Shown piece by piece: positions 11,948 to 48,778 of a stretch of 64,000 nt of DNA (position 1 is the first letter of the stretch; each line of letters begins with the position of its first letter). Source of the stretch: an uncultured Methanosarcinales archaeon (GTDB lineage: Archaea > Nanobdellota > Nanobdellia > Woesearchaeales > DATDXC01). Made by a program: the position numbers and the translations under genes. Under the pieces are notes generated by a model. The model was not told where the DNA came from and did not search any database. It saw only the letters and a program-made list of their open reading frames with translations. The stretch lies in assembly GCA_964510025.1 (NCBI GenBank), contig CAZDZV010000004.1:64611-128610 (forward strand), written 5' to 3'.

Positions 11948-12781
11948 TTAAATGATGAAACTGATGAAGTTCTTTGCAAAATAAGCTTCTACCAAAGCAG
12001 CCAGGAGCAGTATCCCGCCTGCCAGCAAGAATATTGCCAACCCGTCTGCCACCACGTGCTTGAACCTAGGAGACAGGAATCTCTCCCTAACAGAGGCTTT
12101 GGAGATTATCCCACCTGATATGGCCACCAGAAAATAAGCAGCAGCCTCAGCTATGATATGGGGCAGCACCGCCACCACTGTAAGGAATATATAGACAAGG
12201 GGGTTTGCATTAGCCAGAAAATAGCCGTTCCTTATGATAATCCCCATTATAACGCCCCAGGCAGATGCGTTCCATGCAAGGATAAAGACAGCTCCGCTGC
12301 CGTATATGAACGAAGTGACCAGGCAGAAGAGCAGAATCCTGAAATTATTGGTAAACAGGTCCCAGAAATTGTCTGTCCAGCTTGTAGCTTTTCCTACCTC
12401 CCCGACAAGGCTCATCTGGTGCTCAAAGACATGGCTGGTGGTGAGTGGCGGAAAGAAAATAGAAAAAAAAGTGTATGTCAGCATGATCCCCAGGAACAGG
12501 AAGAGATATATCTTGATTATATCTAGATGGGACTCAAATAGGTGCACAAGATTAAGATTTATCTTCTTTCTTGCATCCTCGTTCTCTTCAAGCTCTATAA
12601 GCCTGTTGAGGGACGGCAGGATTATCAGTGATGTCAGCGCAATCGAAGCCAGTCCCACGTCTCTTGGAAATATCAGGATTGCGAGGAACAGTGCAAATAA
12701 TGAATATGTGACCCCAAGCAGGAAAGTATACCTTGGCTTGCTTTTCAGCCACCTTATAGAGTAAATCTGCTCTAAGACCAT
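11948..12781 (-). CDS. SpoIIM/DUF95-family membrane protein
   Basis: 'LFTNNFRILL', 'FILAWNAS', 'LPHIIAE', 'LAALVEAY'. Confidence 0.8.
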   Translation of the reverse strand: MVLEQIYSIRWLKSKPRYTFLLGVTYSLFALFLAILIFPRDVGLASIALTSLIILPSLNRLIELEENEDARKKINLNLVHLFESHLDIIKIYLFLFLGIMLTYTFFSIFFPPLTTSHVFEHQMSLVGEVGKATSWTDNFWDLFTNNFRILLFCLVTSFIYGSGAVFILAWNASAWGVIMGIIIRNGYFLANANPLVYIFLTVVAVLPHIIAEAAAYFLVAISGGIISKASVRERFLSPRFKHVVADGLAIFLLAGGILLLAALVEAYFAKNFISFII

Positions 12782-13650
12782 TTTTGAAGCTCTTCTACCA
12801 CCTTTACGTCATTGAGCACAAACAAGTGTACCCCTGGTGCTCCATACTGCTTCAGTTTCTTTATCATCTCTGAACAGTATTTGATTCCAAAGTCCGGAGC
12901 TTCCTTAAATCCATCTTTTAGCTCCTTGTTGACCTTCAACTTAAAAAACCTTTCGATTGACTCTATCTGTTTTAGGTTCCTTATAGGCCGTATCCCCGGT
13001 ATCACAGGCACTGTTATGTTGTTCTTCCGCAGCTTTTCTGCATATTCCCGGTATTCTTCAAATGAGAAGATCATCTGGGTGATGATAAGCTCTGCGCCTG
13101 CCTCTATCTTTGCCCTTATGTGCTTGAGCTCATCTGCAAAATCATCTTCAGGGTGGCCGGCTGCGATTATGCAGAAATCTGTCTGCAGCCCTTTCCGAGA
13201 CTCTTTGTCTATCCCTTTTCTGGGAAGATATATCCCCTTGTTCATGTTATTTATCTGCTGCATGAGCAGGTATGCGTATCTGTAGTCCCCATCCCAGGCT
13301 TCTTTTTTCTGTCCTGCTGGCGGGTCGCCCCTCAGAGCAAGGATATTGTTGATGCCCATGTAATAAAGGTCCATAAGGTCGTTCTCTATCTCATATTTTG
13401 TCCTTTCCCTGCAGACAAAATGGGCTATTGTGTTTAATCCGAACTTAGCCTGTGCAAAATAAGATATAGGCAATGTGCCCCCCCTTAAGCTTCCGCCTGC
13501 ACCTTTGGTTATGCTTACAAAATCAACCTTATCCTTGAGAAAATCGAGCTGGCTGAAAATTTCGTCGCATGATGTCCCGTTTCTTGGGGGTACAAGCTCT
13601 ACAGACCAGGTAAAGCCCTTCTCTTTCAATATCTCGGTTACCTTTTTCAT
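12772..13650 (-). CDS. metF: Methylenetetrahydrofolate reductase
   Basis: 'SVELVPPR', 'SITKGAGGS', 'ILALRGDPP', 'KIEAGAELIITQMIF', 'GVHLFVLN'. Confidence 0.92.
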   Translation of the reverse strand: MKKVTEILKEKGFTWSVELVPPRNGTSCDEIFSQLDFLKDKVDFVSITKGAGGSLRGGTLPISYFAQAKFGLNTIAHFVCRERTKYEIENDLMDLYYMGINNILALRGDPPAGQKKEAWDGDYRYAYLLMQQINNMNKGIYLPRKGIDKESRKGLQTDFCIIAAGHPEDDFADELKHIRAKIEAGAELIITQMIFSFEEYREYAEKLRKNNITVPVIPGIRPIRNLKQIESIERFFKLKVNKELKDGFKEAPDFGIKYCSEMIKKLKQYGAPGVHLFVLNDVKVVEELQKWS

Positions 13651-15938
13651 CTTATGAGCTCATTGATCCTTTTTACAGCAACCAGAGCATCCTTTGCATA
13701 TGCAGCCTTGATTCCGGAGGCATAATCGCTCGTCACGACAGCTCCGCCGACTATGACAGGAACATTGACATTATTCTTTCTTAATTCCTTTATAACATTT
13801 TCCATTTCTATTACAGTCGTTGTCATGAGCGCAGACAAGGCAATGATATCCGGCCTGTGTTTTATGGCCTCTTCGATGATCCTTTTGGTCTTGACGTTGA
13901 CGCCCAGGTCTATTATGCTGTAGTTATGGCTCTCAAGCAAGGCTATAACTATGTTCTTGCCGATGTCATGGATATCATTTTCCACAGTGGCAAACATCAC
14001 TTTTCCCCGCTCCCTGCCCCCTTTTTTGCTGAGCTCTTTCTTGAGCCTGCTGAATGCCCTTTTCATTGCATCAGCTGACAGCAGCACCTGCGGAAGAAAA
14101 TATTCCTTTTTGTTGAATCTCCTGCCAACCTCGTTCAGCGCATCGATCAGTATATCGTTTATCCTGTATGCGTCTATGCTCTCGAGTGCTTTTTCCACTA
14201 GCTGCGCTATGCTGTCCCTGTCGCCGTAGAGAACGGCGTTGTACAGCTGTTTGTCCAGGGGAAGCCTGCTATAGTCCTTTTTCTTTGGTTTCCAGCTTAT
14301 GTCTATGGAGGTGTCTGCCTGGAATACCTTATCAAGGGGGTTGAGTATGGCTAGGTCCAGCCCTGCTTTAGCGGCCTTTGTAAAGAATTTAGAGTTTATC
14401 TCTGACCTGTTTGGCAGCCCATGGGAGATGTTGCTCACCCCTAGGATTGTCCTGTAGCCAAGGCTCTTAAGCTCCTTTACAGCATCCAGTATTATCTTTT
14501 CGTTCTCAGGGTTTGTAGCAATGGTCAGCACCAGGGAATCAACTATTATGTCCTTCTTGGCGATACCTGCCTTTTCAGCACGCCTTATGATCCTCTTTGC
14601 TATGCTTATCCTTTTCTCCTTTGTCTTTGGTATGCCCTCATCATCCAAAGCAAGGGCGATTATTGCTGCACCGTATTTCCTTGCCAATGGGATCATTTCT
14701 TGCAGGCTTTTCTCTGACCCGTTTACAGAATTGATGAGCGGCTTTCCGTCTGATTTTTTTAGCGCAGCTTCCAGGGCTTCAGGATCGGAGGTGTCGATAA
14801 CAAGCGGCGCATCAACTACGTTCTGTGCTGCCCCTATCGCCTTGGGAAGGCTCTTTGTTTCGTCCCCTCCCGCTATACCCACATTTATGTCTAGCAGGGA
14901 AGCCCCTTCCTCCACCTGCTGAAGTGCCTGGTTCCTTATATAGTCTGTCCTTCCATTTTTAATCTCATCGATAAACTGCTTCCTGTTTGTCGGGTTTATC
15001 CTTTCTCCGACGACAAGTGTTGGCCTGATCTCAACTGTCTTTGTCCTGGAGCATAGTTTTGTCTTTTCTTCGGCGTCTCTTTTGGCCGGTTCCAGGCCTT
15101 TTATCCTGCTAGATATGGCCCGTATGAAATCAGGATTTGTTCCGCAGCATCCTCCGACGATATTTGCTCCAAGATTGATGAATTTCTCTGCATATGCTGC
15201 AAACCTGTCGATTGGATATTCCCAGACTGTTTTCTTGCCTATTATCTTAGGTAATCCGGCATTCGGCTGCAGGCATATCGGCTTATTTGTGTTTTTTGCG
15301 ATTATCTGGGCAGTTCCATACATGCCTTCCGGCCCGTCAGAGCAGTTTACTCCGATAATATCTGCACCTGATGCTTCTGCCACAGCCACGTATGTTTCAA
15401 CATCTGTCCCTGTCGTAGTCCTTCCGTCCTGTATAGTCATCGAGCTTATGATCGGCCTGTCAAATACCTCCTTGACAGCTACCAGCGCTGCTTTCAGTAT
15501 CCTCAGGTCTGATATCGTCTCAATTATGATCATGTCTGCCTTGGCTAGCCCCTTGGCTTGTTCTTTGAACACCTCATAAGCCTCATCAAAACATAACTTG
15601 CCCAAGGGCTCGATAAACTCCCCTAATGGCCCTATATCCCCTACAACAAGACATTCTGGGCAGGCGATCCTGACATTTTCAACAGCTGCCCTGTTTATCT
15701 CTTTAACCTTATCCTGCAGCCCGTATGCTTTGAGCTTCAGCCTGTTTGCCCCAAAAGTATTTGTCAGTATAAGCTCAGAGCCTGCGTCAGCGTATTCCTT
15801 GTGTATCTTCCTTATAAGCTCAGGCTTTGTCAGGTTAAGCTCATCAGGGCAGCCTTTCAGGCCATATTTCTGGAGCATTGTTCCCATGGCCCCATCTAGC
15901 AGAAACACCTTACTCTTCAGCCTATTGATGAATCCCAT
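13647..15938 (-). CDS. metH: Cobalamin-dependent methionine synthase (Hcy-, folate- and B12-binding domains; no AdoMet reactivation domain)
   Basis: 'LDGAMGT', 'GVNCS', 'GGCCGT', 'GERINPT', B12 motif 'DIHDIGKNIV...LSALMTTT...VGGA'. Confidence 0.95.
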   Translation of the reverse strand: MGFINRLKSKVFLLDGAMGTMLQKYGLKGCPDELNLTKPELIRKIHKEYADAGSELILTNTFGANRLKLKAYGLQDKVKEINRAAVENVRIACPECLVVGDIGPLGEFIEPLGKLCFDEAYEVFKEQAKGLAKADMIIIETISDLRILKAALVAVKEVFDRPIISSMTIQDGRTTTGTDVETYVAVAEASGADIIGVNCSDGPEGMYGTAQIIAKNTNKPICLQPNAGLPKIIGKKTVWEYPIDRFAAYAEKFINLGANIVGGCCGTNPDFIRAISSRIKGLEPAKRDAEEKTKLCSRTKTVEIRPTLVVGERINPTNRKQFIDEIKNGRTDYIRNQALQQVEEGASLLDINVGIAGGDETKSLPKAIGAAQNVVDAPLVIDTSDPEALEAALKKSDGKPLINSVNGSEKSLQEMIPLARKYGAAIIALALDDEGIPKTKEKRISIAKRIIRRAEKAGIAKKDIIVDSLVLTIATNPENEKIILDAVKELKSLGYRTILGVSNISHGLPNRSEINSKFFTKAAKAGLDLAILNPLDKVFQADTSIDISWKPKKKDYSRLPLDKQLYNAVLYGDRDSIAQLVEKALESIDAYRINDILIDALNEVGRRFNKKEYFLPQVLLSADAMKRAFSRLKKELSKKGGRERGKVMFATVENDIHDIGKNIVIALLESHNYSIIDLGVNVKTKRIIEEAIKHRPDIIALSALMTTTVIEMENVIKELRKNNVNVPVIVGGAVVTSDYASGIKAAYAKDALVAVKRINELIR

Positions 15939-19161: not shown

Positions 19162-19860
19162 ATGAAGTCAGTATATAAGCTACTCTACAAAAGGTATGGT
19201 CCCCAAGGCTGGTGGCCGTTGACAGTAAACCATGTGCCAATCCACTATGCAGGAGATCCAAAAACAGAGAGGCACAGATTTGAGATTATCATTGGAGCGA
19301 TACTGACCCAGAATACGAACTGGAGAAATGTTGAAAAGGCTTTGCATAACCTCAGCAAGGCAGGTCTCCTGGACATCAGGAGGATGTGCAGGGCCAGGGT
19401 AGATAAGATCGCCAGGTTGATCAGGCCGGCTGGATACTACAACCAAAAAGCAGAAAGGCTCAAGCTCATTGCCCGCTACATACTAAAGAACTACGGCTCG
19501 ACAGTTTGCTTTTTTGACAAGAAGATATCTGAATTAAGGGAAGAGCTTCTGGGCATCAGAGGGATAGGCCCTGAGACAGCTGACTCTATCATGCTCTATT
19601 CTGCAGAAAAGCCCATCTTTGTGATAGATGCGTATACAAAGAGGATCTTCACCAGGCTTGGCCATAAAGAAAAAACATATGATAGCTGGCAGTATATGTT
19701 TATGGGCAGCCTTAAGCCAGATGTGCAGCTTTTCAAGGAATTCCATGCGCTTATTGTCCAGCTGGCGAAATCCAGCTGCAAAAACAAGCCAGAATGCCGG
19801 AGCTGTCCGCTGTCAAGCATCTGTTCATCTAAAAAAACCAAAAAGGTTTCGGAAAAATAG
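19162..19860 (+). CDS. Endonuclease III-related HhH-GPD glycosylase
   Basis: 'YGPQGWWP', 'GAILTQNTNW', 'GIGPETADSI', 'FVIDAYTKR', C-terminal 4-Cys cluster. Confidence 0.9.
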   Translation: MKSVYKLLYKRYGPQGWWPLTVNHVPIHYAGDPKTERHRFEIIIGAILTQNTNWRNVEKALHNLSKAGLLDIRRMCRARVDKIARLIRPAGYYNQKAERLKLIARYILKNYGSTVCFFDKKISELREELLGIRGIGPETADSIMLYSAEKPIFVIDAYTKRIFTRLGHKEKTYDSWQYMFMGSLKPDVQLFKEFHALIVQLAKSSCKNKPECRSCPLSSICSSKKTKKVSEK

Positions 19861-35660: not shown

Positions 35661-36734
35661 ATGATATCCCATAAAAAATACATGGAAGAAGCCATAAAGC
35701 TTGCAGAAAGGGGAAAGGGCAATGTAAGCCCAAATCCGCTTGTAGGCTCCATAATAGTGAAACGGGGTTCTGTAGTAGGCAAGGGCTATCATAAGAGGTG
35801 CGGGTGCGACCATGCTGAGATAATGGCCCTCAAAGAAGCTGCTCATAAGGCAAGGGGATCTACATTATATGTCACCCTGGAGCCCTGCTCGCATTGGGGC
35901 AAAACTCCTCCCTGCACCCAGAATATAGTTGATGCAGGTGTAAGGGAAGTGGTGATAGGCATGAAGGATCCCAATCCTAAGGTAAACGGTTATCTTGAGC
36001 TTAAGCAAAGGGGGATAAAGACGAAGATAGGCATCCTAGAGGATGAGTGCAAAAAGCTCAATGAGCCGTATGTTAAGTGGATCAAGAAAAAAAGGCCTTT
36101 TGTCGTCGTTAAGGCTGCAATGAGCCTTGACGGCAAGATAGCTACCAAGACAGGGGATTCAAAATATATAACAGGCAAGGAAGCCAGGAGGTTTGTGCAT
36201 CAGCTAAGGTCAGAGCTGGACGCTGTTATGGTGGGCTCAAAAACAGTCCTTAAGGATAATCCCCAGCTTACCGTTAGGCTTTCTAAAGGAAGAAATCCTG
36301 TGAAGGTAATCCTGGACAGCAGCTTCAAGACCCCGGTCAATGCTAAGGTTGTAAAAAACGAGCCGGAAAAGCTGATTATCGCCACGTCAAAAAAGGCAAG
36401 CAAATCCAAGATAAAAAAGTTCAGGCAAAAAGGCGTAAAGGTTGTGATAACAAACACAAAAAAAGGGAAGATAGACCTCGAGATACTGATGAAAGAGCTC
36501 GCCAGCCTGGAAATCTGCTCCATAATGATAGAGGGCGGTGCCGAGCTGAATTCTGAAGCTATCAAGTCAGGCATAGTGGACAAGGTGCTTTTCTTCATCT
36601 CTCCCGGTCTTATAGGGGCCGGCCTTGAGGCGATCGGGGATCTTGGGATTACAAAAGTTGACAAGAAGATAAGGCTGAAGCGTCTGGACTATAAGAAGAT
36701 AGGCAAGGACATACTTATAGAAGGATACCTATAA
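35661..36734 (+). CDS. ribD: Bifunctional riboflavin deaminase/reductase
   Basis: 'SPNPLVG', 'HAE', 'TLEPCSHWGKTPPC', 'AMSLDGKIAT', 'IEGGA'. Confidence 0.96.
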   Translation: MISHKKYMEEAIKLAERGKGNVSPNPLVGSIIVKRGSVVGKGYHKRCGCDHAEIMALKEAAHKARGSTLYVTLEPCSHWGKTPPCTQNIVDAGVREVVIGMKDPNPKVNGYLELKQRGIKTKIGILEDECKKLNEPYVKWIKKKRPFVVVKAAMSLDGKIATKTGDSKYITGKEARRFVHQLRSELDAVMVGSKTVLKDNPQLTVRLSKGRNPVKVILDSSFKTPVNAKVVKNEPEKLIIATSKKASKSKIKKFRQKGVKVVITNTKKGKIDLEILMKELASLEICSIMIEGGAELNSEAIKSGIVDKVLFFISPGLIGAGLEAIGDLGITKVDKKIRLKRLDYKKIGKDILIEGYL

Positions 36735-36772
36735 TCCATATATTTTTAAATAATCTCTTTTTCTTCTGTTTT

Positions 36773-37384
36773 ATGTTCGGAAAAATAGAAGATGCCCTAA
36801 GAAGGCTTCAGAGAGGGGATTTCATAGTCCTTGTTGATGATGAAAACAGGGAAAATGAAGGTGATCTGGTCATAGCTGCAGAAAAAGCGACCCCTTCAAA
36901 GCTAAACTACATGATAAAGTGGGCCAGAGGGATCATGTGCATACCTATGGAAGGAACACAGCTTGATCGTCTTGGTATACCCCTCATGGTTCCTGACAGC
37001 ACAGATAGGTTCAATACTCGCTTTACTGTGTCTGTCGATGCCAGAAACAATACCACCACTGGGGTGTCTGTTTATGACAGGATGGAAACAATAAGGATAC
37101 TCATAGGCAGGGATTCAAAACCAGAACAGCTTGCGATGCCAGGGCATATGTTTCCATTGAGAGCTTCAGAAAATGGCGTTCTGGAGCGGCCAGGCCATAC
37201 AGAAGCAGCTGTTGACCTATGCAGGCTGGCAGGCCTTTTTCCTGCGGCCATCATCGTAGAGATAATGAAAAACAATGGCGAGATGGCTAAGCTGGATGAG
37301 CTAAGATCGTTTTCTGATAAGCATAAGCTGTCTCTTTATGCCATAAAAGACCTGGTTTCCTACAGAAAAAAGAATAATGTCTAA
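36773..37384 (+). CDS. ribB: 3,4-dihydroxy-2-butanone-4-phosphate synthase
   Basis: 'DDENRENEGD', 'FTVSVDA', 'TTGVS', 'PGHMFPL', 'RPGHTEA'. Confidence 0.96.
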   Translation: MFGKIEDALRRLQRGDFIVLVDDENRENEGDLVIAAEKATPSKLNYMIKWARGIMCIPMEGTQLDRLGIPLMVPDSTDRFNTRFTVSVDARNNTTTGVSVYDRMETIRILIGRDSKPEQLAMPGHMFPLRASENGVLERPGHTEAAVDLCRLAGLFPAAIIVEIMKNNGEMAKLDELRSFSDKHKLSLYAIKDLVSYRKKNNV

Positions 37385-37457
37385 TATTAGACATAAATGT
37401 CTATTTTGTCTTTTTCTGGTCAATAACTTTATAAAGATTTCTTGTTTAATCCAGATC

Positions 37458-38624
37458 ATGACAAAACTCTGGCAGCAAAAAAAACTCAATAAGATTGTAG
37501 AAAAATTCACAGTGGGGAATGACTATCTGCTGGATGCAAAGCTCCTGAAATACGACTGCATTGCATCTATAGCCCACGCTAGGATGCTATGCAAGATAGG
37601 GATTGTAACAACAAAAGAATTTTCCAGACTAAAAAAGGCGCTTGATGATATAATAAAGCTTGATGAGAATGGCAAGTTCAAGATCAGCCCTTCTGATGAG
37701 GACAGCCACACAGCGATAGAGAACTACCTTACTAAAAAGCTCGGCAAGCTGGGCAAGAAGATCCATACTGCCCGAAGCAGGAATGATCAGGTTGTGGCTG
37801 CCATGAAGCTTTATGAAAAAGACGAGCTGTTCAGGATATTCAAGCTGGTTAACCAGCTTGTCTCAACACTCCAGAAGTTTTCCAAAGATATTGAGATTCC
37901 TGGCTACACCCATATGCGCAAAGCGATGCCTTCTTCTATCAGGCTCTGGGCCAGCAGCTTTATAGAAAGCCTGGAAGATGATTTTAAGCTTCTCGACAAC
38001 GCCCTGGATATAATTGACAAGAATCCTCTGGGAACTGCAGCTGGATATGGTGCCCCTCTCAAGGTGGATAAGGATGAGACTAAAAAGATCCTCAAGTTCA
38101 GGGATAACTACAAGAATCCCCTATATGTGCAGAACTCCCGCGGCAAGCACGAAGCCATTATACTCAATGTCCTGACGAACATAATGCTGACACTGAACAA
38201 GATGGCTTCTGACATCATATTGTTCTCTATGCCTGAGTTTGGGTTCTTCGCCCTTAAGGATGAGATAACTACAGGCAGCTCTATAATGCCTCAGAAAAAA
38301 AATCCAGATGCTCTTGAGCTGGTAAGGGCGAAATATTCAACAGTCCTGGGCTATGAGTTCCAGCTTAAGAATCTTGTGTCAAACCTCATCTCAGGATATA
38401 ACAGGGACCTGCAGCTGACCAAGGAGCCCTTGATCAGGGGCGTTGAGACGACCAAGGCGTGCCTGGAGATGATGGCTATAGTAATCAGGAACATGAAGAT
38501 AGACAGTAAGAGATGCGAAGAAGCTATGACTGAAGAGCTTTTCGCCACACAGAAGGTGTATGAACTTGTCTCCAAGGGCGTTTCCTTCAGAGAAGCCTAT
38601 AAGAAAGTCAAGGGGCAGCTATAG
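37458..38624 (+). CDS. argH: Argininosuccinate lyase
   Basis: 'KIHTARSRNDQ', 'PGYTHM', 'TGSSIMPQKKNPD', 'SGYNRDLQ'; start reassigned to ATG 37458 (MTKLW). Confidence 0.93.
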   Translation: MTKLWQQKKLNKIVEKFTVGNDYLLDAKLLKYDCIASIAHARMLCKIGIVTTKEFSRLKKALDDIIKLDENGKFKISPSDEDSHTAIENYLTKKLGKLGKKIHTARSRNDQVVAAMKLYEKDELFRIFKLVNQLVSTLQKFSKDIEIPGYTHMRKAMPSSIRLWASSFIESLEDDFKLLDNALDIIDKNPLGTAAGYGAPLKVDKDETKKILKFRDNYKNPLYVQNSRGKHEAIILNVLTNIMLTLNKMASDIILFSMPEFGFFALKDEITTGSSIMPQKKNPDALELVRAKYSTVLGYEFQLKNLVSNLISGYNRDLQLTKEPLIRGVETTKACLEMMAIVIRNMKIDSKRCEEAMTEELFATQKVYELVSKGVSFREAYKKVKGQL

Positions 38625-39444: not shown

Positions 39445-40785
39445 TTATCTTAGCATCGTTACCGCTACTATTATGAATGAAAGTATAACCACGAAGGCTA
39501 TGGCACCGATGACAGTGGCTGTTCCGTATTCATCCCAGAAACCTGGATCAGAATATTGCTCATCAATAGGCACATAGATGGGTATCAGCTCTTCTTCTTC
39601 ATCTTCTTCATCTTCTGCCTCTTCTTCCTGCTCAGACACACAAGCTGCGATGTTCAGGTTTACAGATGCGCTTTCTTCTCCGTCCCCATAGTCTGCTGTT
39701 GCCAAGATAGGGTATAATCCTTCAGATGCATCCACTATGAGGTTAAACTTCCTCCTATATTTGCTGTCATCATCAAAAGGATCCTCATCCAGTTCAAAAT
39801 TGTCCCTGATATCGATGCCCAGGTCCGGATTGGATATGGTCAGCTCAACATCTTCATTTTCAGTGCCAAGGTTTATCAACGTAACATCCAAGGTGGACCC
39901 TCCCCTGCAGGCAACTGTCTCAGGATACAGTTCTATCTTTTCAAACATTATATCATGCCTGTCCTTCTCCACCTCAAGCTCATATTCTATGATCTTTTCA
40001 TACTCAACACCCTTCTCATCCTCTGCAGTTATTATCAGCTTTGCGCTGTAGTCATCCTCCTCAACCTCAAGCGGAATGTCAAAAGTTATCACCAGCTCTT
40101 CCTTGTCATCAGCGTCTATGCCTGACTCGTCTGACTCTTCCTCAATATCATCTCCATCGTCTATGCCTTCGATTATTATCTCAGCTGAGACATCCTCTAT
40201 CTCTATATCGACATCATCTGGATATAGGTTCTCCACCTCTACCTTGATCTCGATCTCAGATTCAGGCTCAACATCCTTTATCTTTCCGCCATCCTCGTCT
40301 GCGCTGCTTTTATCTCCATCAACGTATATCTTAACCTCTTCCACCCTTAGCATATCAGGTAATGTCCCGAATTCCCCGTATCTGAAGCCTATTACATCAT
40401 CATCTTCAGCGCAATAATGCCCTGAGAATGACTCAAGGTCTTTATTCCAGCAGTTGCCGCCGCTGAATCCCACAGGCATATACGCCCACTCCCCGTCGTT
40501 GATGATATAGAATCCCCAGTAATTTGATCCCCAGGCACACGATGTTCCTATTACATTGTCTCCTTTTCCCTCAATCTTGCATAACGCCCTGCCAAAAGCA
40601 CCTTCATCGCTCCATGTGAAATCAAGATCTGACTGCTCCAGAAGCTCAAATCCGCTTGTCCCTTCCGCAACATTTAAGCAGTCACCTTCTGCCTTATCGT
40701 CCTCCATCTGAACGACTATGCATACTTCAGCAGCGCTAACCGCCGCTATACACAATAAACCAATCAAAAAGACTATACTTTTCAT
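39445..40785 (-). CDS. Membrane-anchored surface protein: DUF4430/transcobalamin-C-like N-domain, S-layer-type Ig-like stalk, C-terminal TM; putative B12-binding protein
   Basis: Signal peptide; 'GTSGFELL...FGRALCKIEG...YWGFYI...WAYMPVG...DDDVIGFRY' pattern; acidic Ig-like repeats; C-terminal TM; ATGA coupling to the S-component. Confidence 0.75.
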   Translation of the reverse strand: MKSIVFLIGLLCIAAVSAAEVCIVVQMEDDKAEGDCLNVAEGTSGFELLEQSDLDFTWSDEGAFGRALCKIEGKGDNVIGTSCAWGSNYWGFYIINDGEWAYMPVGFSGGNCWNKDLESFSGHYCAEDDDVIGFRYGEFGTLPDMLRVEEVKIYVDGDKSSADEDGGKIKDVEPESEIEIKVEVENLYPDDVDIEIEDVSAEIIIEGIDDGDDIEEESDESGIDADDKEELVITFDIPLEVEEDDYSAKLIITAEDEKGVEYEKIIEYELEVEKDRHDIMFEKIELYPETVACRGGSTLDVTLINLGTENEDVELTISNPDLGIDIRDNFELDEDPFDDDSKYRRKFNLIVDASEGLYPILATADYGDGEESASVNLNIAACVSEQEEEAEDEEDEEEELIPIYVPIDEQYSDPGFWDEYGTATVIGAIAFVVILSFIIVAVTMLR

Positions 40786-41417
40786 TTAGACCCCCCTATC
40801 AGTTTAAATCTATCAAGCAATTCCTTGCACACCTCTCGTTGGTTGAATTCACCCTTTTCCTCAATAAATACTTTTGTTTTTGGAATGAGTAGTGAAAAAA
40901 CAAGGTTGCTGCCCAGATGCACCGCCCCAAAAGGAAGCGCTGTCAAAAACAGGGTGAAGAATCCAAAAGGAAACATGAAAACTGAGCCGATATTCACAAC
41001 AACCTCAAAGATAAAGGTTGCAAGTGCCGAGATAAGCAGCAAATGCCATATTCTTGCTTTCTTCCCCAGAAAACCTCCAAGCCAGCCAGCTATCCCAAAG
41101 CCTATTGCCTGGAATAGGCTCCATACTCCTTGTCCCCCAAAAACAAGAAAATTAGAGGCATAAAGGGCTCCGGCGCCTGTGATAAATCCCTTTCTTTTCC
41201 CAAAAAGCCATCCCGCAAGGATCGCAAAGAAGGTTATTGGCTCTGCGCTCGGTACAGCCTGCATCGGCACCCTTAGTGCAGCAGCTCCCAGCGTGAATCC
41301 GACCAGCACAAGCCATTCTCTAAGCTTAAGTACCTGCAGCTGCTTCTGCAGCGACAGCTGCGCCAGCCTCTGCTTTGAATCTGACTTTTTCTTCTTTAGG
41401 ACTAATTTCTGGTTCAT
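40782..41417 (-). CDS. ECF transporter S-component, CbrT-like (cobalamin)
   Basis: 'ALRVPMQAVPSAEPITFFAILAGWLFG..GF..GA.ALYASNF..GGQGVWSLFQAIGFG'; SD GAGGA before ATG 41417; riboswitch upstream. Confidence 0.85.
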   Translation of the reverse strand: MNQKLVLKKKKSDSKQRLAQLSLQKQLQVLKLREWLVLVGFTLGAAALRVPMQAVPSAEPITFFAILAGWLFGKRKGFITGAGALYASNFLVFGGQGVWSLFQAIGFGIAGWLGGFLGKKARIWHLLLISALATFIFEVVVNIGSVFMFPFGFFTLFLTALPFGAVHLGSNLVFSLLIPKTKVFIEEKGEFNQREVCKELLDRFKLIGGSK

Positions 41418-41426
41418 AATATCCTC

Positions 41427-41537
41427 AGAGAAATCCGAAACCATCGGACTGCTCCACGATCCTTTGTTTCTGATAAGTGTTCCGGCTTTACGGTTGCGGG
41501 TCAGCGTTGGATTTCCACCATGCTTTCCTTTATCAGA
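41427..41537 (-). promoter_or_regulatory. Compact cobalamin riboswitch (aptamer 41469-41537) plus downstream P13-like hairpin (41427-41455)
   Basis: Minus strand TCTGATAA-AGGAAAGCA-TGGTGGAAATCCA-AC-GCTGACCCGC-AACCGTAAAGCCGG-AACAC-TTATCAGA; 8-bp closing helix; T-loop hairpin; CCC loop; ACCGTAA/AGCCGG B12-box. Confidence 0.85.
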
Positions 41538-41554
41538 TATAATCACTAAACATA

Positions 41555-41959
41555 TCAATTATAAAAACTTTTCGCTTGCTTCCATGGCAGCATTACGCAT
41601 TCGTCAGAGTCCATCATGCTATAGTCTGCTTTTCCGTTGAAGACAAATGTTTTTACCTCATTTCCCTTAAGGATCTCCCTTGCTTTCTTCAGGGTAGCTC
41701 CTGTCCGTGAAACATCATCAACAACAAGAATCTTCATGTTGCTTATACCTCGGAACTTCATAGCCAGCTTTGGCCCTCTGTGTTTTATCTTGTTTTTCTC
41801 ATCCCTGTATTCAAGCCATAGGATATCCATGGGTATCTTTAGGATAGATTGGATCATGCCCCCAAGTATTACCCCACCAGAGCCTATCGCCACTATCATA
41901 TCAAATTCCCCGAACCTTATCTCTTTTAGCCTGGAAAAAAGCTCCTCAAAACTTATCAT
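41555..41959 (-). CDS. Type I phosphoribosyltransferase (purine PRTase-like, short)
   Basis: 'IVAIGSGG' and PRPP loop 'ILVVDDVSRTGATL', C-terminal 'LPW'; start reassigned to ATG 41959. Confidence 0.85.
   Translation of the reverse strand: MISFEELFSRLKEIRFGEFDMIVAIGSGGVILGGMIQSILKIPMDILWLEYRDEKNKIKHRGPKLAMKFRGISNMKILVVDDVSRTGATLKKAREILKGNEVKTFVFNGKADYSMMDSDECVMLPWKQAKSFYN
41558..41574 (-). promoter_or_regulatory. BRE/TATA promoter for the riboswitch-led operon
   Basis: Minus strand CGAAAAG-TTTTTATAAT about 20-25 nt upstream of the aptamer 5' end; overlaps the 3' end of the PRTase gene. Confidence 0.65.
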
Positions 41960-42435
41960 CGTATAGTTCCTGTCTTCTTGTATGTAAGCCAGGCAAGCCA
42001 TCCCCATAGTATATCTGAGAAGAATAGGGCTATTATGACGCCATGCACCACCTTTACAGGCATTCCTGCCAGATATATGTCTGAATAGTAAAGCCATGGC
42101 ATCTGTATGAGATAAGCAGCCAAGATGCAAAGCATAGCATGCCATCTCATCCTGAAGAACAGTCCGGCACAAAACCCAAGTATAATATTTCCAACAATGA
42201 TATAGGGGTTTCCCATGGAGATGGCCGTAAATAAGGAGCCAACGCCTCCTGAAACCAGGCCGCCTAGAGGACCGTACATGAAAGCTGCCAAGAATACCAG
42301 GTATTGGAATATATGGATCTTAAATCCCCATACAGTGGGAAGATTGATCATCCCGAAAAAATTAGGCAGTATAGCTAAAAAAGCAAGCATACTGATGGAT
42401 CTAAAGGAATATCTGAACCTGATAAGATTTTCCAT
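41956..42435 (-). CDS. ECF transporter S-component, substrate unknown
   Basis: 'KIHIFQYLVFLAAFMYGPLGGLVSGGVGS' S-component pattern; about 5-6 TM; start reassigned to ATG 42435. Confidence 0.8.
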   Translation of the reverse strand: MENLIRFRYSFRSISMLAFLAILPNFFGMINLPTVWGFKIHIFQYLVFLAAFMYGPLGGLVSGGVGSLFTAISMGNPYIIVGNIILGFCAGLFFRMRWHAMLCILAAYLIQMPWLYYSDIYLAGMPVKVVHGVIIALFFSDILWGWLAWLTYKKTGTIR

Positions 42436-42513
42436 GAAAATACAAAACTGGTTCTGATATAAATACCTTACTGTTTCAAAAGCTTTAAATATAGAGATTC
42501 TCAGGACTGTCTT

Positions 42514-43380
42514 ATGTTGATTGTAGGCTGCTCTCATGGAACCCATCTTGCAAAAAAAGTAGCAAGGAAGCTGCATAAGAGCTATCATGAGCTGGAATTT
42601 ACAAGGTTCCCCGATTCTGAGATAAAACTAAGGTTTAGATGCCCTGTGAAGAACCGCTATGTCTTCCTGGTGCAGTCCTTCTACGGAAACGTGAATGACT
42701 GCATAGTCGAGGTCCTTTTTGCGGCAGAGACTGCCCGCGACCTGGGTGCAAAGGAGGTGATCCTGGCAGCCCCTTATTTTCCCTATCTGCGCCAGGATAA
42801 GCGATTCAATCATGGGGAATGCATCTCCCTAAGGACAATCGCCAAGAATATCGATGAAGACTTCGACAAAATAATGATAATCGATCCCCATCTGCATAGG
42901 GAAAAGACCCTGGAGCATATCTTCCGCATAAAATCAAAGAGACTGACTGCAAACCCACTGATCGAAGATTATATCAAAAAGAAGATAAAGGATCCCCTTA
43001 TTATCGGCCCGGACTGGGAAAGCTATAAGTGGGCCCAGAAGGTTGCCGAAAATATCGGATGCGATTTTGCGATAATGGAGAAAGAAAGGCATTCTGCAAG
43101 AAAAGTAGAGGTAACTCTGAACAAGAGGATAAGCATAAAGAATAAAAATCTTGTTTTTATAGATGATATGATCTCTACAGGCCATACCCTTTTGGAAGCT
43201 ATAAAAGCTATGAAAAGGTTAGGGGCAAAAAAGGTAACATGCTTTGCTGTGCATGGCATTCTGGTTGAGAACGCCCTTCAGAAGCTAAAAAAAGCAGGGG
43301 CAGAAGTCATCACCACGAACACCATCCCAAATAAGGCTGCAAAGATTGATGTATCTGGGTTATTGGCATCGGCTATCTGA
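42514..43380 (+). CDS. prs: Ribose-phosphate pyrophosphokinase
   Basis: 'FPDSE', 'PYFPYLRQDKRF', 'IIGPD', 'FIDDMISTGHT', 'HGI'. Confidence 0.95.
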   Translation: MLIVGCSHGTHLAKKVARKLHKSYHELEFTRFPDSEIKLRFRCPVKNRYVFLVQSFYGNVNDCIVEVLFAAETARDLGAKEVILAAPYFPYLRQDKRFNHGECISLRTIAKNIDEDFDKIMIIDPHLHREKTLEHIFRIKSKRLTANPLIEDYIKKKIKDPLIIGPDWESYKWAQKVAENIGCDFAIMEKERHSARKVEVTLNKRISIKNKNLVFIDDMISTGHTLLEAIKAMKRLGAKKVTCFAVHGILVENALQKLKKAGAEVITTNTIPNKAAKIDVSGLLASAI

Positions 43381-44224: not shown

Positions 44225-45673
44225 CTAATAGCTCTTACCAAAATATGTCCAGAATCTGGGTTTATTGTCGCATAGGATGCATCTATCAGGCAGTCTATCC
44301 TGCTTGAAAGGTATGCACCTGGAGCCAGCCCCGCCTGTCCTGTCCCTTATCAGGTCCTCGCAGGCCTCATCCCCGCAAAATGGGACTAACGCAACCTTTC
44401 TTTTCTTGATGATTTCCACGAATTCTCTCCAGTCTTCTGTTTTCTCTATGCTTGAATCTAGGTATCTTTTTGCTTTTTCAAACAATGCTTTCTGGATATC
44501 TTCTAGGACTGCCTTTGCTTTTTTCTGCAGACCATCTATCTTTACCGGCTGTTTTTTTCCATTATCCCTCCTTACCAGGATAACCTGATTCTTTTCTATA
44601 TCCTTCGGTCCTATCTCAATCCGCAAAGGTATCCCTTTTAGTTCCCATTCATTGAACTTCCATCCAGGATTGTATTCATCTCTGGCATCCACTACAGCAG
44701 ACTTCAGCATCTTTCTGATATCATCTGCTTTCTTGACTATTTTGTCTTTGTTTTCAGCCTTAAATATGGGCACTATGACAATTTGCACCTCAGCAATAGC
44801 CGGCGGCAGCACTAATCCCTTGTCATCGCTGTGTGTCATCACCAGTCCGCCGATCATCCTTGTTGAGATGCCCCAAGAATTATGGTATGGATAATGCTCC
44901 TTCTTATCCCTTCCTATATAGCTGATGCCGAAGCTTTTCACGAACCCCTGCCCCAGGTCATGGGTGGTGCCCATCTGAAGGAATTTACCGTCAGGCATAA
45001 ATGCCTCTATGGTATATGTATTCTCTGCACCTGCAAACTTCTCCTTGCTTGTTTTTCTTCCTGTAAGTACCGGAACAGCGAGCATATCCTCGCATATCCT
45101 TCTGTATTCATGAAGATAATCCAGGACCTCTTTTTCATTCTCTTCTTTTTTCTCGTACAGGCAGTGGCCTTCCTGCCATAGGAACTCCCTTGATCGCAAA
45201 AACAGCTTGGTAGCTTTGGTTTCCCACCTTACAACAGAGCACCATTGGTTAATCTTCAGGGGCAGGTCCCTGTAGCTCCTGATCCATCTTTTGAATGAGT
45301 CGCACATGATGGTCTCAGACGTGGGTCTGATGGCCAGCTTTTCCTCTAATTTCCTGTGGCCCGCATGCGTTACCCATGCCACTTCTGGATTGAAGCCCAC
45401 AGCATGCTCTTTCTCCTTTTCGAAAAATCTTTCAGGTATAAATAGGGGAAAATAGCAGTTTCTTACGTTATATTTTTTCAGGACATCGTTAAAACGGTCC
45501 TGTATCATCTGCCATATAGCAAATCCGTTGGGCCTTATTACCATGCATCCCTTCACAGCAGAAAACTCAGCCAGCTCTGCTTTCAGGACAACCTGCTCGA
45601 ACCATTCAGGCATATCCTCGGATTTCCTGACACCTATACCCAATGTATCCTTTTTTTCTCCCATGCCCATCAT
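44225..45673 (-). CDS. proS: Proline--tRNA ligase (archaeal/eukaryotic type)
   Basis: 'IRPTSET', 'LPLKINQW', 'FLRSREFLWQEGH', 'SWGISTR', C-terminal 'FGKSY'. Confidence 0.97.
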   Translation of the reverse strand: MMGMGEKKDTLGIGVRKSEDMPEWFEQVVLKAELAEFSAVKGCMVIRPNGFAIWQMIQDRFNDVLKKYNVRNCYFPLFIPERFFEKEKEHAVGFNPEVAWVTHAGHRKLEEKLAIRPTSETIMCDSFKRWIRSYRDLPLKINQWCSVVRWETKATKLFLRSREFLWQEGHCLYEKKEENEKEVLDYLHEYRRICEDMLAVPVLTGRKTSKEKFAGAENTYTIEAFMPDGKFLQMGTTHDLGQGFVKSFGISYIGRDKKEHYPYHNSWGISTRMIGGLVMTHSDDKGLVLPPAIAEVQIVIVPIFKAENKDKIVKKADDIRKMLKSAVVDARDEYNPGWKFNEWELKGIPLRIEIGPKDIEKNQVILVRRDNGKKQPVKIDGLQKKAKAVLEDIQKALFEKAKRYLDSSIEKTEDWREFVEIIKKRKVALVPFCGDEACEDLIRDRTGGAGSRCIPFKQDRLPDRCILCDNKPRFWTYFGKSY

Positions 45674-45696
45674 CTATCGCCAATGTTTAATAAGCT

Positions 45697-46728
45697 TTAC
45701 TCTAAGACAATGTTCTCGCTCTTGACAACAACCGTGCCTTTCTTCCCGGCTAGCCGTATTACCTGCTCTGAAGAGTAGTCTGTTATACCTTTTGCTATGC
45801 TGTTGATGTCTACTATTGAATTTTTCTCAAAATGCCCTTCTGCGGTTCTTATGCCTATAGACAGCAGGCTGCGCTTGTTTTTGACAGCCTTCTCTGCACC
45901 CTTATCGATCAGTATCCGGCCTTCTGACTTTGAAAACTTTATCCATCTTTCCTTGTTTTTGAGCCTGCCGGAGGCAATGAACAACGTTCCCTCTTCTCCT
46001 GCCAAAGCCTTCTTAAGTATGCTTTTTTTTCTGCCGTTGCATACCACCACATTACATCCTGATTCCATCGCCATCTTGGCTGCTCTTATCTTGGATACCA
46101 TGCCGCCTATTGCGAAAACACTCCCGGATTTCCCTGCCATCATCTCGATTTCCCTTGTGATCTTGGTGACATTCTTCACAAGCTTTGCATCTTTGCTTGT
46201 TTTGGGATTTTTGTCGTACAATCCGTCTATGTCGCTGAGCATTATGAGCATGTCTGCATTTACCTTTCCTGCGACCAGTGCCGACAGTTTATCATTATCT
46301 CCAAAGGTTGCACCTATCTCGTCGACACTTATTGGGTCGTTCTCATTTATGATCGGCACGACATGGAGCTCAAGAAGCTTGTTTATTGCTTTCCTGAGGT
46401 TAAGATACCTGTTCCTGTTTGAAAAATCTTCATACGTCAGCAGTATTTGGGCCACCTTTATGCTATAGCGGGAAAAGGCATCATGGTAGGCCCTCATCAC
46501 TGTGCTCTGCCCTACAGAGGCCAGTGCCTGCCTGACCTCTATCTGCCTTGATTTCTTCAAGCCAAGCTCTGTGCAGCCCGCGCCTATAGCGCCTGATGTG
46601 ACGATGATCAGCTCATGCCCCCTTAACGAGGATATCTGCCTGGCAATATCCCTGATAAATTCATCACGCAATCCGCATAATCCTTCTTTTGTAAGAAGGT
46701 TTGTGCCTATCTTTATCACGATCCTCAT
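45697..46728 (-). CDS. proB: Glutamate 5-kinase with PUA domain
   Basis: 'IVIKIGT', 'VTSGAIGAG', 'PIINEND', 'FGDNDKLSA', 'GGMVSK'. Confidence 0.96.
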   Translation of the reverse strand: MRIVIKIGTNLLTKEGLCGLRDEFIRDIARQISSLRGHELIIVTSGAIGAGCTELGLKKSRQIEVRQALASVGQSTVMRAYHDAFSRYSIKVAQILLTYEDFSNRNRYLNLRKAINKLLELHVVPIINENDPISVDEIGATFGDNDKLSALVAGKVNADMLIMLSDIDGLYDKNPKTSKDAKLVKNVTKITREIEMMAGKSGSVFAIGGMVSKIRAAKMAMESGCNVVVCNGRKKSILKKALAGEEGTLFIASGRLKNKERWIKFSKSEGRILIDKGAEKAVKNKRSLLSIGIRTAEGHFEKNSIVDINSIAKGITDYSSEQVIRLAGKKGTVVVKSENIVLE

Positions 46729-47996
46729 TTTATCCTCTTATGCATAAACTTCCTCTTGCCCGCGTATTCAGATACGATATGGCCGTCTCCTACCAGCACA
46801 TATTTGTATATGACAAGGCCTTCCAGACCGACCGGGCCTCTTGCGTGGACCTTGTTGGTGGATATGCCTACCTCTGCGCCTAGACCATACCTGAAACCGT
46901 CGCTGAAACGTGTTGATGCGTTCCACAGTACAGACGACGAGTCAACTGCCTGAAGAAAAGCCTTTGCAGTCTTCTTATCTTCTGTGACGATTGCATCGGT
47001 GTGGCCTGAGCCGTGCCTGTTGATATGCTCGATTGCCTCCTGTACGCCGCTCACCACCTTTACCGAGACTATGAGGTCTGTATACTCAGTTTTCCAGTCC
47101 TTCTCGGTTGCTTTTTTAGCATCTATAAACTTCCTTGTAGCAGCATCCCCTCTTATTTCGACACCTGCTTCCCGGTACATCTTAGCGATCTTTGGCAGGA
47201 AGGCGGATGCAGCAGATTTATGGACCAGCAGTGTTTCCATGGCGTTGCATACAGCCGGATATTGGCATTTGGCATCGTAGCTGATCCTGGCTGCCTTGGC
47301 TATATCTGCTCCCTTGTCAACATACACATGGCATATCCCTTCTGAATGGCCCAGCACTGCGATCTTCGTATTGTTCTGGATATATTTGACAAACTTGTTG
47401 GAGCCTCTGGGTATTATAAGGTCTATAAATTCATCCATCCTCAGTATCATCCTTACATCCTGTCTGGTCTCCAGAAGCTGGATCGCATTCTCTGGAATTC
47501 CGTTGTCTTTTATTGATCTTCTGATAATCTTAACAAGCGCCTTGTTTGTATTTATCGCCTCTTTGCCGCCCTTAAGCAGCACAGCGTTTCCGGATTTGAT
47601 AGCTAAGGCAGAGATCTGTACAACAACCTCGGGCCTAGATTCAAATATACAGGCAATTACCCCTATCGGGACAGAAATCTTCTCCAGGGTAAGCCCCTTA
47701 TCAAGTATTGTCTTGGCTAATGTCCTACCAACAGGATCTTCCAGCTTTGCCACTGATCTCACCATCTTTGCCATGTCCCTTATCTTAGCTTCATCCACCT
47801 TAAGCCTTTTGAGCAGTGGGTCTGGGATACTGCCTCTGCTTTTCTCAATATCTTTTCTGTTGGCGTCTAATATCTCTTTCTTATGCGCTATAAGGTCCTG
47901 GGCAAGCTCAAAAAGGGTAAAATTTTTTGTATCCTTTGCAGCTATAGCTAATCTGAGCGACGCTTCTTTTGCATTTTCGCATTTGTCTACAATCAT
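46725..47996 (-). CDS. proA: Gamma-glutamyl phosphate reductase
   Basis: 'VPIGVIACIFESRP', 'CNAMETLL', 'HGSGHTD', 'NASTRFSDG...GAEVGIST..HARGPVGL'. Confidence 0.97.
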   Translation of the reverse strand: MIVDKCENAKEASLRLAIAAKDTKNFTLFELAQDLIAHKKEILDANRKDIEKSRGSIPDPLLKRLKVDEAKIRDMAKMVRSVAKLEDPVGRTLAKTILDKGLTLEKISVPIGVIACIFESRPEVVVQISALAIKSGNAVLLKGGKEAINTNKALVKIIRRSIKDNGIPENAIQLLETRQDVRMILRMDEFIDLIIPRGSNKFVKYIQNNTKIAVLGHSEGICHVYVDKGADIAKAARISYDAKCQYPAVCNAMETLLVHKSAASAFLPKIAKMYREAGVEIRGDAATRKFIDAKKATEKDWKTEYTDLIVSVKVVSGVQEAIEHINRHGSGHTDAIVTEDKKTAKAFLQAVDSSSVLWNASTRFSDGFRYGLGAEVGISTNKVHARGPVGLEGLVIYKYVLVGDGHIVSEYAGKRKFMHKRIK

Positions 47997-48778
47997 CTTC
48001 CCAGCTCCTTGCTTCTTTCGGTTGCTCTTTTGATCGCCTTGATGAGGATTTCCTTAACATCTGAGCCCTCGATAATCTCTCTGCCGGCCACGGTTGTGCC
48101 GTTAGGGCTGCTCACCATCGTAACCAGCTCTTCAGGCTCCATTCCTGTCTTCTGCAGCAGCGCAGCTGTGCCCTTGAAAGTCTGGATTGCCAGCTCGGAT
48201 GCCACATCCTTGCTCAATCCTGATTGCATGCCGCCTTCTACCATTGCCTCGATAAGCCTGGCTACAAAGGCAGGCCCAGAGCCGCTAAGCCCGGTCACCG
48301 CATCTAACAGCTCTTCATCCAGCAGGAAAGCTCTTCCCGCTGAATTCAGTAGGTCTTCAACAATCCTTATATCCTTTTTTCCGACTTTTTTCCCTACTGC
48401 GAAACCAGCTGCCATCTCCCCGACCAGACAGGGTGTGTTGGGCATCACCCTAACCACCTTGGCCTTGAGCTTTGATTCAAGCTTCTGGATCCTGATGCCT
48501 GCAGCTATGGATATGATCAGCTGGTCCTTCACAGTTATCTCTTCCAGAACTGAGTCTATATGCTGGGGCTTCACAGCGATGATTATAATATCTGATTTTG
48601 CCACCACTTCCTTGTTATCTGCAGCAATCTGAACACCCAGCTCTTTCTTGAAGACCTTGAGCCTTCTGTCGTTGATATCTGATGCGATTACAGAGCTAGC
48701 CAGCTTCGCCTGAATAACAGCCTTGGCCAAAGCATAGGCCATATTTCCAGCTCCGATAAACCCTATCTTATACATCAT
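47993..48778 (-). CDS. proC: Pyrroline-5-carboxylate reductase
   Basis: 'GFIGAGNMA', 'AVKPQ', 'RVMPNTP', 'TGLSGSGPA', 'VSSPNGTT'. Confidence 0.97.
   Translation of the reverse strand: MMYKIGFIGAGNMAYALAKAVIQAKLASSVIASDINDRRLKVFKKELGVQIAADNKEVVAKSDIIIIAVKPQHIDSVLEEITVKDQLIISIAAGIRIQKLESKLKAKVVRVMPNTPCLVGEMAAGFAVGKKVGKKDIRIVEDLLNSAGRAFLLDEELLDAVTGLSGSGPAFVARLIEAMVEGGMQSGLSKDVASELAIQTFKGTAALLQKTGMEPEELVTMVSSPNGTTVAGREIIEGSDVKEILIKAIKRATERSKELGR

Follow-up and report, generated by a model that had tools for sequence, protein, structure and literature searches.

Class-II cobalamin riboswitches are represented in Rfam by RF01689, a family first described as 'AdoCbl-variant' with its taxa given as 'Marine' (PMC2864571). 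It was reported that J1/3 is a determinant of selectivity (PMC6158498), a paired J1/3 being a class-IIb trait tied to adenosylcobalamin and a plain L6 a class-IIa trait (PMC7367189). The consensus of L5 is UCCCG, a bulged kiss has been described for env8, and for the topology in which strands are exchanged between stems both signs, repressing and activating, are documented in bacteria (PMC10653944). The element considered here lies between 41537 and 41427 on the minus strand of a window of 64,000 nucleotides (the whole stretch of DNA analysed) from a DPANN archaeon of Woesearchaeota type, whose genome is 97.7% complete and which comes from the same order as a sample of 151 genomes used below. 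It is very probably a genuine cobalamin riboswitch of class II, its ligand binding being predicted, and it would form the whole 5' leader of a two-gene unit for B12 capture and import. What is new is the host, the loss of J1/3 and the read-out.

Among archaeal riboswitches, those for thiamine pyrophosphate, fluoride and flavin mononucleotide, together with Mg-I and guanidine-II, have been listed (PMC5473149), the fluoride riboswitch being the only tested one, in T. kodakarensis (PMC8241225). Bacterial cobalamin switches have been contrasted with an archaeal list that lacks them (PMC8281238, after a 2019 review). In the literature searched, in which subscription journals were thinly covered, no archaeal cobalamin riboswitch was found, and none in connection with Woesearchaeota; the accessible sections of PMC3849165, 10.1101/538918, 10.64898/2026.10.21.760802, PMC9943018 and PMC10450193 hold nothing on one. 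Against novelty, the cobalamin class has been called widely distributed 'in bacteria and archaea' (PMC9600662, after Nahvi 2002, 2004), and genome-wide scans, Rfam hit lists and supplements could hold these loci unremarked.

Aptamer, kissing loop and promoter

In a preliminary description of this DNA, made from the letters alone, a compact cobalamin riboswitch had been proposed at this place, and all the motifs named there are present where it put them. The parts of the element are the following.

41560..41576, minus: BRE-like run (B recognition element) and TATA box, TTTATA at 41565-41560 behind a purine-rich run
41469..41537, minus: predicted class-II cobalamin aptamer (RF01689), with a continuous P1-P3 helix as closure
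41537-41530 with 41476-41469, minus: closing helix, TCTGATAA with TTATCAGA, spanning 69 nt
41529-41525, minus: AGGAA, read in sequence
41520-41508, minus: TGG-TGGAAAT-CCA, read in sequence; as 41508..41520, P4 with T-loop L4 (UGGAAAU)
41505-41496, minus: GCTGACCCGC, read in sequence
41494..41504, minus: P5 with loop L5 ACCCG (41501-41497)
41478..41493, minus: P6 (CCG/CGG), loop L6 UAAAGC, then J6/3 AACA, from the Rfam alignment
inside the element, minus: AACCGTAA, then AGCCGGAACAC, motifs named earlier and confirmed
41446..41462, minus: P13 (GGAU 41462-41459 with GUCC 41449-41446) with L13 CGUGGAGCA (41458-41450)

The proposal was borne out by a match to RF01689 (AdoCbl-II) above the gathering threshold, by recurrence and by covariation. 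The match covers 41467-41539 and scores 36.9 bits, the cut-off being 36.5 (E 4.4e-5 in the 64 kb window, 2.8e-7 on the genome, which holds a single copy), and it is the sole riboswitch at the gathering threshold in the window, the only other match being a tRNA; the next Rfam match in 40800-42200 has an E value of 5.2 or worse. The class-I model RF00174 reaches 26.6 bits, below its cut-off of 31.5, and both the P2 arm and the long P6 extension, which are class-I traits, are absent, placing the element outside class I. Folding of the whole leader was no better than that of shuffled sequences (z -1.07), which counts against folding energy as evidence; the case therefore rests on conservation and covariation.

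For this comparison, a pattern search, which picked up 82 stretches in metagenomes, gave 142 matches in all, reduced to 95 distinct rows: 27 from same-order genomes or archaeal records, 16 from metagenomes with a downstream protein grouping with those, 6 from metagenomes that were assigned by eye, and a remainder of 46. The first three groups make up the archaeal set of 49 rows, 48 of which were aligned with MAFFT, L010 being left out for its P6 insertion. The pattern, whose first version favoured a simple P6 loop, fixed P6 and part of P5 but did not extend to P13 and L13. It matched in 24 of 401 genomes (a count that takes in two unpublished genomes, G210 and G374, whose sequences were left out of all later analysis), in none of the reversed control, and in 4/4 other genomes of the family. 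RF01689 itself matched in 13 of the 151 same-order genomes, 9 of them above the cut-off, with relatives scoring up to 57 bits. A model built from the alignment found 4/151 in the phylum sample, all within the same order (the number of genomes of other orders in that sample is not shown), and added no new copies on 26 further cbrT-like loci.

Across the 48 rows, 84.9% of cells pair, compared with 75.0% in shuffled and 29-45% in slid controls, and both sides change at 17/27 pairs. The P1-P3 helix (41537-41528 with 41477-41469), which has nine pairs, one bulged A and no J1/3 loop, is 72.5% paired with both-side changes at 7/8 pairs, and P4 is 95.3% paired with such changes at 4/4, its T-loop being missing or shortened in L025, L031 and L051. 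P5 changes on both sides at 1/3 pairs. Such a helix had been drawn earlier as GC/GC around UGACCC; covariation, a G-C to C-G swap in 6/48 rows, backs UG/CA around ACCCG instead. The CCG/CGG pairing first suggested for P6 agrees with the Rfam alignment; P6 is invariant in the 48 rows, but its columns were fixed by the pattern and hence provide no covariation test of it.

The element has the four-way junction P3-P6 with T-loop L4, no P2 arm and no long P6 extension, and it lies 5' of cobalamin-related genes on the same strand, all of which characterise class II. Its subclass is mixed. A plain P6 loop, as in class IIa, which is methyl/hydroxo-selective, is found in 48/49 copies, the P6 hairpin extension typical of class IIb occurring only in L010 and being absent here; the bulged J1/3 loop that contacts J6/3 in class IIa has no conserved counterpart in the alignment, and a short paired or mismatched J1/3, as in class IIb, is present. 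Judged by its predicted structure, the element mixes IIa and IIb traits; the paired-through P1-P3 helix is the trait tied to adenosylcobalamin, while the host's needs suggest methylcobalamin.

A kissing partner for L5 was found in P13, which is 91% paired. In this copy, L5 (41501-41497) would pair with CGUGG at 41458-41454 (CG-U-GG), one U being bulged. Where L5 is of the xCCCG type, CG.GG follows within 40 nt downstream in 41/42 rows and CG.GC in one; where it is xGCCG, CG.GC follows in 5/5 and CG.GG in 0/5, and the xCGCG type has CGCGA in 2/2. The swapped kissing pair is C-G in 42 rows and G-C in 4 of the 48-row alignment, a compensatory change of the kind expected from the L5-L13 contact of class II, so that CGUGG can be regarded with high confidence as the partner of L5. 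In the preliminary description, the GGUU loop of the hairpin at 41455-41427 was instead proposed as a possible kissing partner for GACC of L5, giving translational control; on that model, the kiss would steady a stem blocking GAGGA. Four base pairs are indeed possible in this one sequence and the hairpin abuts GAGGA, but the fit is found in 1/40 homologous loops, this sequence only; the loop at that place is variable among relatives, often GNRA and sometimes a whole inserted hairpin, while L5 covaries with CG.GG or CG.GC and GAGGA lies outside the stem. This candidate kiss was rejected, and the model built on it is extremely improbable.

The archaeal promoter placed ahead of the element by the same description was supported, the TATA box keeping its spacing among relatives: it ends 23-36 nt before GGAAA in 41/43 archaeal copies, compared with 6/46 other copies and 3/6 unclassified ones. 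In this copy, it overlaps the last codons of the upstream phosphoribosyltransferase gene (stop at 41557-41555). Among host open reading frames (ORFs) with an unambiguous start, TTTAWA begins 32-28 nt before ATG in 193/878, with a peak at -30/-31; applied to TTTATA at 41565, this spacing predicts that transcription starts at about 41537-41533, where P1 has its 5' edge. Neither a sigma-70 promoter nor a bacterial-type terminator was found at the element.

Some of these results weigh against the riboswitch reading: the margin above the RF01689 cut-off is thin, the compensatory swaps, seen in kin that share sequence, amount to few independent events, and a start site within P1 would cut the closing helix to 4-6 bp. 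A decayed or non-functional relic, or a piece of bacterial DNA assigned to an archaeal bin, could also be envisaged, considering that the score is just above the cut-off, that the same pattern is common on bacterial contigs, and that most cbrT-like loci have no switch. It was present within the fetched flanks at 10/26 loci in one set and within 1.5 kb at 9/26 in another, and therefore many copies of the gene stand without it. However, the TATA box at a fixed distance in 41/43 copies, the neighbouring TrmB and S-layer-like genes, the presence of the element in 4/4 other genomes of the family and the covarying helices all speak against such an origin. Moreover, the 27 records that held relatives of the cbrT-like protein are all archaeal (16 titled Woesearchaeota, Nanoarchaeota or Nanoarchaeia, 9 'uncultured Methanosarcinales archaeon' and 2 'archaeon'). 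This explanation is consequently very improbable.

Competitor hairpin and output step

Three further features of the leader bear on its output.

41427..41455, minus: competitor (anti-kissing) hairpin GGAG..AGUCCGA / UCGGAUU.CUCU, which excludes P13
41422..41426, minus: weak Shine-Dalgarno (SD)-like GAGGA, outside the hairpin; GAGG at -9, the host peak being at -12 to -10
41417, minus: ATG of the first gene, read in sequence

The downstream hairpin noticed earlier is present at 41455-41427, but the role then given to it does not hold, as it is a conserved alternative fold that destroys P13 and buries L13. Its 5' strand takes up GGAG of L13 and GUCC of P13 and therefore excludes the kiss, and its 3' strand bears the pyrimidine run UUUCUCU. 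Its calculated stability is -12.9 kcal/mol, that of P13 being -2.4 kcal/mol. A lenient automatic rule, which also admits marginal folds (L002, L005, L007, L143, L146), detects a comparable stem in 40/49 rows with a median of -8.4 kcal/mol, and the stem is kept around an inserted hairpin in L016, L080, L090, L091 and L134. In rows without the competitor (L067, L098, L100, L136), the start codon lies inside or just past P13, which is the env8 arrangement, and the purine-rich L13/P13 or the AUG itself adjoins the start. One locus carries two switch copies 780 nt apart (L017:3108-3178 and 3885-3959), each with its own TATA box, in which P13 is weak or lost and L13 and the competitor stem are retained. 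Comparison among relatives establishes, at the level of predicted structure, the four-way aptamer and the L5-L13 kiss, and with them a competitor hairpin to which L13 and the P13 3' strand also contribute.

From these elements, a strand-exchange switch turned OFF by cobalamin can be proposed. In the absence of cobalamin, the stronger competitor hairpin would form and end 7-12 nt before the AUG, leaving the SD-like motif and the AUG free for expression. Cobalamin bound during transcription would let the kissing loop lock P13, so that the competitor could not form; its pyrimidine-rich 3' strand would be set free and expression would fall. In this copy, the freed GAUUUCU (41435-41429) can form 7 bp with AGAAAUU (41410-41404, codons 3-5), both read in the sequence, and by folding onto it would enclose GAGGA and the AUG and block initiation. 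No single conserved helix carries out this blocking in relatives. As a predicted whole, this is the best explanation, held with a confidence barely above even; of its parts, the OFF sign is moderately favoured, and the ON direction is unlikely though far from negligible.

The argument for OFF comes from the 37 competitor-type leaders with an assigned start, the pyrimidine run having been among the criteria for choosing them. In 37/37 the run ends 7-30 nt before the AUG, in 24/37 at 7-12 nt, and never closer than 7 nt, which argues that the hairpin state must stay translatable, and hence for OFF with B12. Translational control by masking of GAGGA found no support: GAGGA is outside the hairpin, and an SD-like 4-mer occurs in only 9/37 leaders, in 9/9 of them outside the stem, which also fits OFF. 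The competitor never covers the SD-like motif or the AUG. The env8-like arrangement of the rows that lack the competitor likewise favours OFF, and the repressing P. megaterium metE switch works by the same exchange of strands (PMC10653944). Across relatives, no conserved SD-masking helix was found in either state, and the main ATG lies 41 nt from the start of L13, unlike the env8 type with its ribosome-binding site in L13 beside the start codon. An upstream in-frame ATG at 41444 (GGAG at -11) is buried in the competitor hairpin and not conserved. Both this ATG and a conserved leader peptide were rejected as the general mechanism, since most copies have no ATG 13-15 nt past the beginning of L13 and the frame varies among those that do.

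Over positions -8..+12, opening this copy costs 5.7 kcal/mol in the P13 state and 2.6 kcal/mol in the free state. Several results nonetheless count against OFF by strand exchange. Over the same positions, the 37 copies show no trend, 18 being harder to open in the P13 state and 14 in the free state, and real spacers do not outperform shuffled ones. In this copy, the competitor exceeds P13 in stability by about 10 kcal/mol, so the ligand may win only kinetically. Over -20..+13, the free state is less accessible in 31/36 copies (median 9.1 versus 6.0 kcal/mol), which points to ON, and the topology of the competitor equals that of the activating A. halodurans cobT switch.

The last two results favour an ON switch with the same aptamer and kiss, in which the competitor, about 10 nt before the AUG, would hinder ribosome loading until cobalamin removes it, so that scavenging genes would be induced only on meeting B12, for instance on a B12-making host. 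The likeness to cobT (PMC10653944), the clustering of the spacer at 7-12 nt in 24/37 leaders and a whole-leader minimum-energy fold that here extends the stem onto the AUG all fit it. However, an OFF hairpin usually covers the SD-like motif or the AUG, which this stem never does; moreover, the AUG is free in the centroid fold, and one target in the set is a ribonucleotide reductase (RNR) small chain. The RNR small chain is normally repressed by B12, and positive feedback on an importer is unusual. This alternative is unlikely, though by no means negligible.

The pyrimidine run also raises the question of an OFF switch acting on the transcript, in which the freed UUUCUCU would be an archaeal termination or cleavage signal for FttA/aCPSF1 and the competitor an anti-terminator masking it. 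The host encodes aCPSF1, a run of 5-9 pyrimidines with A-rich flanks is found in 37/37 leaders, and L004 and L010 retain it although its pairing register differs there; no bacterial-type terminator was found in the region. TTTCT follows stop codons at 15-19% of likely transcript ends, against 3.6% inside operons, but the figure for convergent genes is confounded by antisense coding sequence. The M. maripaludis enzyme requires a pair of U4 tracts and showed no binding to U3 tracts (PMC8716108), whereas U4 is present in only 5/37 leaders and not in this copy, a criterion that may differ in DPANN. Additionally, pairing with GGAG explains the pyrimidine run without further need, and the tight spacing to the AUG points to translation. 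Termination is thus improbable as the output.

A broader reading is that of a lineage-wide archaeal switch, a IIa/IIb hybrid, whose read-out has no bacterial counterpart. Given that the competitor covers neither SD nor AUG and that no terminator follows, it would be either ON, or OFF by way of a pyrimidine strand exposed to the termination or decay machinery. This is a serious possibility, somewhat short of even.

Target genes, host and neighbourhood

The genes that the leader precedes, and those in the window that bear on the use of cobalamin, are as follows.

40782..41417, minus: CbrT-like S component of an energy-coupling factor (ECF) transporter, 211 aa; DUF6580, E 7.4e-10
39445..40785, minus: surface protein, 446 aa, with a 4-nt overlap with the first gene
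13647..15938, minus: MetH-type B12-dependent methionine synthase, 763 aa; Pfam S-methyl_trans, Pterin_bind, B12-binding, B12-binding_2
12772-13650, minus: MetF (methylenetetrahydrofolate reductase), after MetH

The cbrT-like identity first assigned to the target was upheld by DUF6580, by S-component profile matches and by an ECF-S fold. Its profile matches S components, among them 6FNP, which we take to be CbrT, at E 0.0035, and the two share the motifs P-x-x-x-P-x-T and G-x-G-x-W-T; the relation to 6FNP is statistically weak, folate S components scoring equally. The fold search gave the ECF-S fold with no row at E <0.001, and 6FNP was not among the matches listed. The surface protein has an N-terminal transcobalamin-beta/DUF4430-like domain and an S-layer-like remainder (predicted local distance difference test score, pLDDT, of its model 91.5). 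With Foldseek, 16/16 listed rows for this domain with E <0.1 are transcobalamin, intrinsic factor, haptocorrin or 3U7Z, the best at 5.4e-4, and a sequence search of the domain against the PDB gave 0 matches. DUF4430 is detected in 3/25 homologues of the surface protein and not in this one, where NF033506 stays below its cut-off. In a relative (L037:3944-5995), S component and transcobalamin-fold surface protein are fused in one ORF of 684 aa, and the leader there holds a short upstream ORF, with GAGGUG lying under a strong hairpin, which suggests translational coupling.

Within the archaeal set, 21/49 copies lie directly before a cbrT-like gene, two before cobA, one before the RNR small chain, here with an ATP cone, and one before a DUF4346 gene; the others lead ORFs that have no annotation, and several of these ORFs stand ahead of cbrT. 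Long, acidic ORFs of low complexity, with no Pfam match, follow the switch at L025:406-3333, L119:2611-5049, L083, L091, L097, L108, L120, L141 and L013. In at least three genomes they stand just before cbrT, and the L025 protein ends, by eye, in a small beta-grasp-like domain; these ORFs gave no usable Atlas match and no match to the surface-protein profile. On the bacterial side, L045, L046, L049 and 30 more metagenome loci carry 33 near-identical aptamers, with L5 mostly UGCCG, which lead genes of a single uncharacterised protein family, about 240 aa long and marked by a CPHG..G.CPIC motif; its nearest Atlas clusters are Melainabacteria hypothetical proteins, and it is a candidate B12-regulated family.

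MetH is the host's visible use for cobalamin. The protein ends at the B12-binding domain, and no reactivation domain was detected in it. The host genome encodes seven B12-binding domains, the six besides MetH lying in frames of 479-496 aa that are probably B12-dependent radical SAM (S-adenosylmethionine) enzymes; class II RNR, CobA and EcfT were not found in this 97.7% complete genome. B12-binding domains occur in 119/151 genomes and the cbrT-like gene in 50/401 (each count with 3 unpublished genomes among them).

Host-wide, a TATA box stands 30 nt before the ATG in about a fifth of the scored ORFs, which implies many leaderless mRNAs, and others have a clear GAGGTGA signal; no motif match was obtained for the 16S 3' end in the host, and hence the anti-SD was not read. 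Directly upstream of the element, at 41956-42588 and 41555-42043 on the minus strand, lie a second ECF S component and the phosphoribosyltransferase, divergent from a PRPP (phosphoribosyl pyrophosphate) synthetase; in a genome without detected EcfT, the pair may serve the salvage of a nucleobase or a vitamin by means of a solitary S component. At 44225-48778 and 35661-38624, the window also holds proline (named by eye) and riboflavin biosynthesis genes and an argininosuccinate lyase-like gene, which is more biosynthesis than DPANN are usually credited with, and 19825-35373 (minus) encodes a secreted protein of 5182 aa with, by eye, subtilase-like and other surface domains.

Comparison with known systems

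A cobalamin switch that recurs across Woesearchaeota with a TATA promoter would add a major riboswitch class to Archaea. The element would show metabolite sensing in genome-reduced DPANN cells and mark B12-scavenging genes, unknown families included. At 69 nt and without J1/3, it offers a natural minimal aptamer for the question of methyl/adenosyl selectivity, and how an archaeal leader gets switched when its SD is weak or absent can be studied on about 120 nt.

The target unit resembles B12 uptake modules of CbrT with CbrS/BtuH-type proteins, in which an ECF S component and a DUF4430/transcobalamin-beta domain likewise stand under a B12 switch. It differs from them in that EcfT was not found in the host genome and that the binding domain is fused to an S-layer-like protein, or, in one relative, to the S component. 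Known archaeal riboswitches are likewise cis-acting ligand sensors in archaeal leaders, but in the accessible parts of their lists (PMC5473149, PMC8241225) cobalamin is absent and DPANN hosts are not named, and the leader described here has a kissing-loop read-out.

With env8 and class IIa, the element shares the compact P3-P6 junction, the T-loop L4, the simple L6 and the bulged L5-L13 kiss; unlike them, it has no J1/3 loop, P1 and P3 stacking with one bulge, and it belongs to an archaeal host with a TATA promoter. In env8, the L5-L13 contact is itself the translation switch, whereas most copies here add a competitor, with the start codon at least 24 nt past P13. The short paired or mismatched J1/3 is shared with class IIb (as defined in PMC7367189), but the short hairpin typical of P6 in that subclass is replaced by a plain loop, the extension being seen only in L010 (1/49). 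As in P. megaterium metE, which is repressing, and A. halodurans cobT, which is activating, a competing stem of higher stability also uses the 3' side of P13, and in both of these switches the kissing loop decides between the stems, as is proposed here (PMC10653944). However, metE and cobT end in an intrinsic terminator, of which none was found at this locus, and the competitor described here also takes in L13. In its read-out half, the element departs from the textbook bacterial cobalamin riboswitch.
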